This document shows, in pieces, positions 54,621 through 55,578 of a DNA stretch of 64,000 nt. Origin of the DNA: an uncultured Rivularia sp. (lineage in GTDB: Bacteria; Cyanobacteriota; Cyanobacteriia; Cyanobacteriales; Nostocaceae); contig OY762007.1 in NCBI GenBank assembly GCA_963665115.1, positions 2,656,001 through 2,720,000 on the forward strand, written 5' to 3'. Both the position numbers and the translations under genes were made by a program. The notes beneath the pieces are model-generated. The model was not told the origin of the DNA. It saw nothing but the letters and a program-made list of their open reading frames with translations, and ran no database searches. Every line of letters begins with the position of its first letter. Within the stretch, counting starts at the first letter, position 1.

Positions 54621-54767
54621 CCCCCGGTAGCTCAATTGGTAGTAGCGCCTGTTTGTTAGCGTTCACACAGTGAGTCGTTAGACTAAGCGTGTCTGAAAGA
54701 CATAGAACAGGAGGTCGTCAGTATCTCCCGGAGAGAGACGCTGCGCTAACAATTCTGACCTGGGGGA
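54621..54767 (+). tRNA. trnF: tRNA-Phe(GAA) interrupted in both the anticodon and the T-loop
   Basis: CCCCCGG/CTGGGGG-A acceptor; CCTGT-TT-G[48 nt insert 54656-54703]A-GA-ACAGG; GTCAG-T[27 nt insert 54723-54749]CAATT-CTGAC. The GAA anticodon is inferred from the insertion rule. Confidence 0.75.
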
Positions 54768-54772
54768 CTCAT

Positions 54773-54845
54773 TGCCCTATAGCTCAACTGGCAGAGCAAG
54801 CGGCTGTTAACCGCGAGGTTGTAGGTTCAAATCCTACTAGGGCAG
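54773..54845 (+). tRNA. trnN: tRNA-Asn(GTT)
   Basis: TGCCCTA/TAGGGCA, GCGG-CT-GTT-AA-CCGC, GTAGG-TTCAAAT-CCTAC. Confidence 0.9.
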
Positions 54846-54849
54846 TTAT

Positions 54850-54923
54850 TGGGAAGTAGGCAAATAGGTAAAGCCGTCGCACTTTGAATGCGAAATTTGA
54901 AGGTTCGATCCCTTCCTTCCCAG
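54850..54923 (+). tRNA. trnQ: tRNA-Gln(TTG)
   Basis: TGGGAAG/CTTCCCA, TCGCA-CT-TTG-AA-TGCGA, GAAGG-TTCGATC-CCTTC. Confidence 0.9.
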
Positions 54924-54928
54924 CTTAT

Positions 54929-55028
54929 GCTGCTGTAGCCCAACTGGAAGAGGCGCTGGTCTTAGAAACCAGGCGTTGTGGGTATCTCCCTCCGGGAGAC
55001 GCTCCGCTAACAACTCCCACCAGCAGTA
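54929..55028 (+). tRNA. trnL: tRNA-Leu(TAG) with a 27-nt insertion in the T-loop
   Basis: GCTGCTG/CAGCAGT, CTGGT-CT-TAG-AA-ACCAG, GTGGG-T[54984-55010]CAACT-CCCAC; short variable loop. Confidence 0.8.
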
Positions 55029-55071
55029 TTATCCTGTAGTGCAGTTAATAAATGCTGCCACTTGGATTCAT

Positions 55072-55144
55072 GGGTTGTTAGCTCAGTTGGCAGAGCATCC
55101 GCCTTTTAAGCGGAAGTGCGTAGGTTCAATCCCTACACAACCCA
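55072..55144 (+). tRNA. trnK: tRNA-Lys(TTT)
   Basis: GGGTTGT/ACAACCC, TCCGC-CT-TTT-AA-GCGGA, GTAGG-TTCAATC-CCTAC. Confidence 0.9.
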
Positions 55145-55148
55145 CCTT

Positions 55149-55222
55149 ACCCCTGTAACCCAATTGGAAGAGGTGCCAAACTTAAAATCTGGAAGTTGCT
55201 GGTTCAAATCCAGTCAGGGGTA
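55149..55222 (+). tRNA. trnL: tRNA-Leu(TAA), intronless, short variable loop
   Basis: ACCCCTG/CAGGGGT, CCAAA-CT-TAA-AA-TCTGG (one mismatch), GCTGG-TTCAAAT-CCAGT. Confidence 0.8.
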
Positions 55223-55280
55223 TTGCAGAGGCATTTTAGTCTTTGTTTTTATAGGAGTGAATCTAACATTTCTAGTTTAC

Positions 55281-55354
55281 GGGGTCATAGCTCAGTTGGA
55301 TAGAGCGCTAGTTTTGCAAGCTAGAGGTTAGGGGTTCAATTCCCCTTGATTCCA
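55281..55354 (+). tRNA. trnA: tRNA-Ala(TGC)
   Basis: G3:U70 pair, CTAGT-TT-TGC-AA-GCTAG, AGGGG-TTCAATT-CCCCT. Confidence 0.9.
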
Positions 55355-55358
55355 TTAT

Positions 55359-55459
55359 GGTGTCAGAAGTCAAAGTGGTCGAGACGCTTGTTTGTGGAAC
55401 AAGTAATTAGCGGGTATGTCCTTACGGACACGCTCCGCTAACAAGTCCCGTCTGACACC
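55359..55459 (+). tRNA. trnH: tRNA-His(GTG) with a 26-nt insertion in the T-loop
   Basis: G-1 plus GTGTCAG/CTGACAC-C, CTTGT-TT-GTG-GA-ACAAG, GCGGG-T[55416-55441]CAAGT-CCCGT. Confidence 0.8.
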
Positions 55460-55466
55460 CCTTTAA

Positions 55467-55578
55467 GGAAGATGCTGCTCATGGGAGAGCAACTGCATAA
55501 GGAAAACCAGAGTAAGGGTCACACTTAGGGGGTTCTCCCAAAGGGAGACGCTGACGCGAACGATCCCTCCATCTTCCT
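55467..55578 (+). pseudogene. Ser-like tRNA gene (possibly GGA anticodon, 8-bp acceptor) with damaged anticodon arm and a 26-nt T-loop insertion
   Basis: GGAAGATG/CATCTTCC, D stem GCTC/GAGC, variable arm TAAG/CTTA, GGGG-TT[55535-55560]CGATC-CCTC. Confidence 0.6.

Follow-up and report, generated by a model that had tools for sequence, protein, structure and literature searches.

Recurrent insertion of a two-hairpin micro-element, very probably a small dispersed repeat, into the T loops of a cyanobacterial tRNA array

Introduction

What brings short stretches of extra DNA to one and the same position of the T loop in four tRNA genes of a single array, and by what route do they arrive? The question is raised by a 64,000-nucleotide stretch of the genome of an uncultured Rivularia sp. 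(8.69 Mb, 38% GC), here called the window, whose positions are used below unless a genome location is given. It contains a long tRNA array of the trn or L-array type on the plus strand (54034..55580), delimited with ARAGORN, Rfam and ortholog comparison. A stress-induced tRNA operon aids the survival of Anabaena under ribosome-targeting antibiotics. In their sections on the trn operon, two reports describe it as silent and stress-induced, with a TrcR site (PMC10272220; PMC8421152).

How repeats of 21-27 nt move is a question that has stood since 2008. In that year Elhai et al. reportedly described the small dispersed repeats SDR1-8 of Nostoc punctiforme and relatives, said to be 21-27 nt long, with SDR1 and SDR4 nesting in their own copies and SDR4/5/6 forming a structural group with a common two-hairpin fold and compensatory changes. 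SDRs of Nostoc punctiforme and relatives also figure in passages of three further papers (PMC4390886, PMC13756078, PMC5861425), one of which, where it deals with SDR5, gives its length as 21 nt and its insertion point as between bases 3 and 4 of HIP1, and still calls its function unknown (PMC13756078).

Here we propose that the inserts are copies of a non-coding mobile DNA of about 25 bases, of the SDR kind, that enters T^C-purine sites (^ marks the insertion point), favours the tRNA T loop, likely moves as folded single-stranded DNA joined at a nick by an enzyme, and likely kills the spare tRNA genes it strikes; taken whole, this is a reading we favour with reasonable but far from firm confidence. 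The invasion of T loops is recurrent and the micro-element is of a known kind, while its junction and strand rules seem undescribed.

Results and discussion

Four genes of a stress-type tRNA array are interrupted

The array is long and redundant and has two TGTAGTAT boxes across its promoter -10 region (53936..53955, plus strand; motif from PMC10272220), a putative TrcR-type operator; in both respects it resembles the L-arrays and trn operon as portrayed in the parts of PMC8421152 and PMC10272220 that concern them. An aldo/keto reductase gene lies on one side and a DUF3754 gene on the other. It comprises 11 intact tRNA genes by ARAGORN and Rfam, four interrupted ones, which are exactly those array genes that the two programs fail to call, and one tRNA-like relic. 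Housekeeping genes for Phe, Leu(TAG), His and Ser(TGA) are intact elsewhere in the genome. Three of 26 tRNA genes are pseudogenes in the L-array of Anabaena PCC 7120, and L-arrays elsewhere undergo frequent insertions, duplications and deletions, with no T-loop element described in the sections concerned (PMC8421152, PMC10272220); here 4/15 genes are interrupted. The relic (54546-54618), between the Arg and Phe genes and likewise uncalled by ARAGORN or Rfam, is kept in most arrays of the genus, and its ends look like those of a Ser(TGA) gene.

All five tRNA inserts are present in the sequence. As the initial annotation had claimed, four genes carry T-loop inserts at one position, between T55 and C56 in every case, with cores of 25-27 nt preceded by a two-nucleotide head. 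The gene for tRNA-Phe(GAA) (54621..54767, plus strand) is struck twice. Its T-loop insert (54722..54749, plus strand) consists of head TA and a 26-nt core with one mismatch in the first hairpin; the reverse-oriented copy that had been proposed to split its anticodon is indeed found at G^AA (54656..54704, minus strand; head TA at 54703-54704, stem TGTCT/AGACA) and bears in its hairpin-2 loop a nested sister element (54662..54686, minus strand; head TT, stem AGTC/GACT, tail GTGAA) that is absent from the relatives' arrays L002, L008 and L011. The Leu(TAG) gene (54929-55028) has head TA and a 26-nt core (54983..55010, plus strand), the His(GTG) gene (about 55360-55461) head TA and a 25-nt core (55415..55441, plus strand), and the Ser(TGA) gene (about 55465-55576) head GT and a 27-nt core (55532..55560, plus strand). 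The earlier remark that the adjacent T had become A in three cases is correct for Phe, Leu and His; the Ser gene, which had been called unchanged, really went from TT to GT (orthologs GGGG TTC, window GGGG GT TCTCCC). Nor is this change an oddity of the target: it is the element's own two-nucleotide head, which displaces one or two target bases. The Ser gene, first called Ser-like, is Ser(TGA), and its anticodon arm has decayed. In strain X5 the insert is there but the arm still resembles that of orthologs, and arrays L009 and L017 show similar decay of the arm without an insert.

Both checks suggested at the outset, on sequencing data and on related arrays, came out in favour of real insertions. 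Among the DNA runs, X2 and X3 possibly represent the source DNA and X5 a different strain. A contig from run X2 covers 53900-55650 with no substitution and one gap (1 nt, at 55516, outside the inserts), so the inserts are not an assembly artefact. At 55516 the assembly has one base more than the contigs of three runs, probably an assembly error in the variable arm of Ser(TGA). In orthologous arrays of 29 relatives, empty TTC sites were found for each gene (Phe in L005 and L009; Leu(TAG) in L004, L005 and L009; His in L003, L006 and L009; Ser(TGA) in L004 and L005), together with other variants of the element in the same or other tRNAs. With these four sites empty in relatives, the inserts are not ancestral.

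A dispersed family of two-hairpin repeats

The element consists of a two-nucleotide head, hairpin 1, a C, hairpin 2 and (T/G)AA. As a consensus, the head is followed by a stem of 4-7 bp with loop TNC or TNNC, then C, GC-TNC-GC, (T/G)AA and the target C. Perfect copies number 149 in the genome against 1, 1 and 1 in three shuffles, and 175 against 7, 10 and 6 with one mismatch allowed; 149 copies against one per shuffle are not chance. They represent 80 distinct cores, the core being 23-26 nt long in 140/149. Loop 1 reads T..C in 129/149 copies, a feature that the search did not impose, and loop 2 ends in C in 140/149. On the opposite strand both loops therefore read GNA or GNNA, with a C:G closing pair in 115/129. 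Among four-nucleotide loops on this G..A strand the third base is a purine in only 10/26 distinct cores, and so the loops are not RNA GNRA loops; the mini-hairpin d(gcGCAgc) with C:G closing is described, in the part of the source that treats it, as a stable DNA hairpin (PMC3201870).

Stem pairing was counted directly, the MAFFT alignment having run out of register with the stems. A perfect stem of at least 3 bp is present in 37/47 distinct T-loop cores, with seven stem types, among which TCTCCC/GGGAGA, TGTCC/GGACA, TCTCC/GGAGA, TGCGC/GCGCA and CCC/GGG covary. The earlier proposals of independent events by structure-keeping variants and of a micro-mobile SDR-type element are both borne out.

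Copies occur in both orientations without strand bias along the chromosome, where GC skew is too weak for replication polarity to be read, and only 4/87 distinct hosts lie inside long ORFs. The tail motif was found in 43/91 genomes of the class, extending beyond Nostocaceae, with three control matches. In the window, which had been thought to hold about 11 copies, the scan found about nine of family type. Dispersed copies include one in a heptamer tandem repeat (1437..1460, minus strand; empty site TT^C), one in a REP-like palindrome (9052..9075, plus strand) and one with stem AGAC/GTCT in a REP-like repeat (27257..27279, minus strand; empty site TT^C). Another, at about 38930-38980 (minus strand), has a sister nested in its hairpin-2 loop (head AA, TACC/GGTA) and stands beside another repeat type.

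The junction rule

Clean junction rules could be drawn because the sequence of a T-loop site before insertion is invariant and known; what emerges is a precise right end, a two-nucleotide head replacement and strand-specific G..A loops. An exact empty site exists in the same genome for 63/149 copies. Across 23 distinct empty hosts the replaced dinucleotide is TT in 8, AT in 8, CT in 4, and TG, TA and TC in one each, with T at -1 in 20/23. Position +1 is C in 134/149 copies, or in 93 among 107 distinct hosts, and +2 is a purine in 101/107 distinct hosts. These counts give the rule NT^CR, which reads YG^A on the G..A strand and of which T55-C56-R57 of the tRNA T loop is one case; a strict TT^C rule, as first put forward, does not survive them.

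The right junction is precise and lies before a C. Length gain always equals the core; two upstream bases change, of which one or two are usually replaced by the head, and the first base to change is the one next to the element. AT becomes TA (7 hosts) or AA (1 host), CT becomes TA, CA or CT, and TT becomes TA or GT. In one REP-like host (empty CT, 130 copies), which is struck in the stem and on one arm only (0/203 mirror arms), filled heads are always two nucleotides: CT 16, TA 14, CA 12 and TT 2, the last with GAA tails only. A change of the distal base only was seen in 0/42 cases with TAA-tail donors in this host. Unconverted CT heads are limited to this multi-copy host, where later conversion with empty copies may contribute; all 31 TAA-tail T-loop inserts have TA. 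Comparisons of filled and empty sites reveal no target duplication, in agreement with the initial annotation, and on these comparisons a MITE, with terminal inverted repeats and target duplication, was rejected. A recombinase with a 2-bp core was likewise rejected, since in no case is the target dinucleotide present at the right junction.

Sister families in the genome have the same junction geometry. One, 24 nt long and SDR5-like, lies in HIP1 at GCGAT^CGC at about 18 sites (for example, G000 C1:1724950 and 3678833), and some of its copies themselves carry an insert in the loop; three others interrupt TN^C loops within other copies, their heads being TG, TT and AA.

The T-loop element works like the SDRs that Elhai et al. 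reportedly described in 2008, and it is very probably one of them. Its length lies in the SDR range, it is dispersed in multiple copies with filled and empty sites, and it has the two-hairpin fold; size, dispersal, nesting and lack of target duplication are all shared. SDR5 uses the same G^A bond, and in 24 family genomes 4/5 of the HIP1 inserts are 21 nt long with the element's CGC-TNC-GC-(G/T)AA tail. SDR5 differs in being 21 nt long and confined to HIP1, whereas the T-loop family has 23-27 nt and only 1/175 copies in HIP1. The literature searched, the original SDR description of 2008 excepted, gave no mention of T-loop targeting, of two-nucleotide head replacement or of the G-N(N)-A strand rule.

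A proposed single-strand route and the search for a mobiliser

Both loops read G..A with C:G closing pairs on one strand only, where they would form very stable, DNA-specific mini-hairpins, and for this reason we take that strand to be the one that travels: G^TTAGC-GNA-GC-G-stem-GN(N)A-stem-TA. Its 5' end would join the target 3'-OH at YG^A, by copying or by ligation, and its 3' head would then displace one or two target bases before sealing. ViennaRNA left hairpin 2 unfolded on either strand in 3/4 copies and preferred neither strand, and the strand assignment therefore draws on loop sequence and published thermodynamics. The enzyme, we would guess, is a nicking nuclease that is widespread, of host or mobile origin, and acts with repair polymerase and ligase, rather than a reverse transcriptase (RT) or RAYT.

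RAYT, RT and DUF559 had been named as candidate mobilisers, and none of them tracked the element in the genomes compared. DUF559 is present in 10/11 element-rich and 7/11 element-free genomes, and RT in G000 and 2/5 element-rich genomes. A 96-aa GIY-YIG gene was not found in 5/5 element-rich genomes, where other GIY-YIG genes are present. Across the genome RT, DUF559, most Y1 and GIY-YIG genes do not lie near element copies, and the array gaps contain no gene-sized insert with element-like junctions. The gaps of arrays L007, L020, L023, L027, L029 and L030 do hold embedded protein genes, whose products we take, by motif, to be HNH-like, zinc-finger nuclease-like and NADAR-like. In the Leu(TAG) anticodon of array L008 there is a long insert whose first bases, GTGCG, presumably mark a group II intron start. 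A DUF559 gene in the window (36909-37520, minus strand) has three CCCCC..GGGGG hairpin repeats ahead of it.

The strongest competitor, which we nevertheless regard as unlikely, is target-primed reverse transcription, in which a bacterial RT would copy a sense-strand RNA into the YG^A nick and the second strand would be cut 2 nt upstream. Such junctions have a model in the R2 retrotransposons, and the precise right junction, the replacement of no more than 2 nt, on the upstream side only, and the six RT loci of this genome all suit it. Against this, PF00078 is without a match in 3/5 element-rich genomes, namely G344 (one contig, 13 copies), G385 (46 copies) and G412; no RT locus lies within 1.6 kb of any family copy; and the loops are not GNRA or UUCG.

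A little less plausible still is peel-and-paste transposition by an HUH/Y1 enzyme, for which two hairpins would serve as minimal ends for RAYT or IS200/IS605 TnpA. REP/REPIN-RAYT systems and IS200/IS605 derivatives are likewise tiny hairpin DNAs with no target duplication and a probable single-strand route; REP-like repeats are the commonest host, Y1 is present in 11/11 element-rich genomes, and 2/10 Y1 genes have a copy within about 200 nt, against about 4% of random sites within 600 nt. HUH strand transfer, however, leaves target bases unaltered, whereas in 59/61 T-loop inserts TT becomes TA (47) or GT (12) and is kept in only 2, which speaks against an IS200/IS605-type HUH element. The proximity of Y1 genes is explained by RAYT's own REPs, Y1 is also present in 10/11 element-free genomes, and the flanks of eight Y1 genes are without element-like hairpins. 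In G344 and G385 the one RAYT query gave no match and PF01797 only 2 and 1 strong IS200-type matches, with gene loss possible. The element moreover differs from REP/REPIN in lacking the GTAG tag and replacing target bases, and itself inserts into GTAG-type REPs. The junction rules thus argue against simple HUH transposition; they also offer a direct assay for finding the enzyme and make mobility testable. At L169 (G000:C1:4654600-4655500) a RAYT-type Y1 gene is flanked by element-bearing GTAG REPs.

Preference for the T loop

T-loop inserts number 61, in 31 array loci and at least 17 kinds of tRNA, with 47 distinct cores; the count leaves out array L095, which repeats counted inserts, and a false call in L019, whose removal took it from 62 to 61. 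T-loop sites are filled in 61/397 cases against about 14/1607 other T^CR sites in tRNA genes (odds ratio about 20), or with an odds ratio of about 4 against TT^CR sites alone (300), figures that overstate the enrichment to an unquantified degree because the non-T-loop inserts were hand-curated from a search of lower sensitivity and related arrays have events in common. The T-loop preference first noted in this array is thus found across arrays. The roughly 14 other inserts include reversed copies in the Phe and Arg anticodon loops, two reversed copies at G57^A58 and one in a stem; these reversed copies uphold the earlier view of DNA-level insertion on either strand.

The element could instead use any T^CR, its T-loop copies being merely easy to detect or inherited from a few ancestors. 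T55-C56-R57 does equal the general motif, other sites were searched less sensitively, and several copies are common to kin. This account is nonetheless improbable in view of 47 distinct combinations of tRNA, head, stem and tail, an enrichment of about fourfold even against TT^CR alone, and T-loop matches in distant genera. When 301 genomes of the order were searched with the T-loop pattern, eight other genomes matched; of the ten matches nine were in tRNA arrays, one was outside tRNA genes and none was in a solitary tRNA. T-loop inserts among the matches listed include those in Nostoc, Calothrix, Symploca and Leptolyngbya; among the matches listed for the contig motif scan, 103/127 are without a perfect hairpin and mostly chance, so that they serve as examples and not as a census.

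The element may favour T loops because T55-C56-R57 fits its motif and lies in a hairpin. Outside tRNAs, empty sites have a median fold of -3.5 kcal/mol against -1.7 kcal/mol at random T^CR sites, and an enclosing stem of at least 4 bp is found in 24/87 non-tRNA hosts against 14-17% of controls, a modest enrichment. No T-loop sequence variant stands out in insertion rate.

Effect on the interrupted tRNA genes

The interrupted array genes are likely dead, to judge from predicted RNA folds, which show no T arm for the transcripts of the interrupted Leu and His genes. The suggestion that the element is erasing the tRNA operon is only partly borne out: inserted tRNA bodies do not differ more from intact orthologs (mean 2.2 differences) than intact ones do from one another (3.9; p=0.40; 45 against 136 genes), so that loss of function is deduced from structure only. 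Recent insertion or already relaxed selection may account for this low divergence. Copies may last in arrays because the anticodons concerned are also covered by housekeeping genes. In the arrays of the genus T-loop inserts occupy 48/211 scored genes; they hide about a quarter of its array tRNA genes from annotation and probably erode the stress-induced operon.

Very improbable is the micro-intron once suggested, tolerated or removed in RNA so that the tRNA works under stress: a position fixed at 55/56 as in tRNA introns, the lack of extra decay and the intact TrcR-type promoter would fit it, but no contiguous excision predicted from the sequence would restore U54-U55-C56 in 47/61 inserts because the TA head removes U55, the element is also met antisense in tRNAs and at about 150 places that are not tRNAs, no copy was found in a housekeeping tRNA, and its length is far below that of a ribozyme. 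Known tRNA introns are of group I or II, or archaeal BHB introns at non-canonical positions; the present element differs from them in that it occurs in both orientations, destroys a conserved tRNA base and has hundreds of non-tRNA copies. RNA run X1, in which 0.08 of words matched and those from other organisms only, contained no joint skipping an insert. In this mat metatranscriptome, loose ends at 54981 and 55011 hint at a contig with another organism's tRNA(CAT) in which the same T-loop insert is seemingly retained, a signal too weak to use.

A wider system and related insertions

More tentatively, and with clearly less confidence than we place in the T-loop element itself, all SDRs could belong to a single system that spans the class, in which mobile DNAs of 21-27 nt insert by an undescribed chemistry of their own. 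One DNA strand, capped by two mini-hairpins (GNA/GNNA), would be pasted at YG^A and its two-nucleotide head would overwrite the target; the enzyme would be something other than an RT, a RAYT or a classical transposase. Sister families would have split the targets among tRNA T loops, HIP1, REP stems and each other's loops. If true, this would be the smallest known programmable-like route of DNA insertion, with tRNA arrays as its natural reporter.

Other T-loop inserts, with a TA head, different bodies and tails TCTA and GCTA, occur in the gaps of arrays L020 and L027, which suggests further families. Both copies of a candidate transposase-like gene (G000:C1:1637157 and 6205587) are frameshifted by a 26-nt copy of the element and have another copy of it upstream. 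Among the matches listed, the element also lies at TT^CGACTCCGCTCA in a non-tRNA repeat that mimics the T-loop sequence (L051, L080-L082, L097, L104, L114 and L137; Leptolyngbya, Nodosilinea and others). Inserts at L064:1484, L094:1484 and about 1663 sit in T-arm-like hairpins that are not recognised as tRNA after removal of the insert; these hosts are possibly tRNA-like RNAs or decayed genes.
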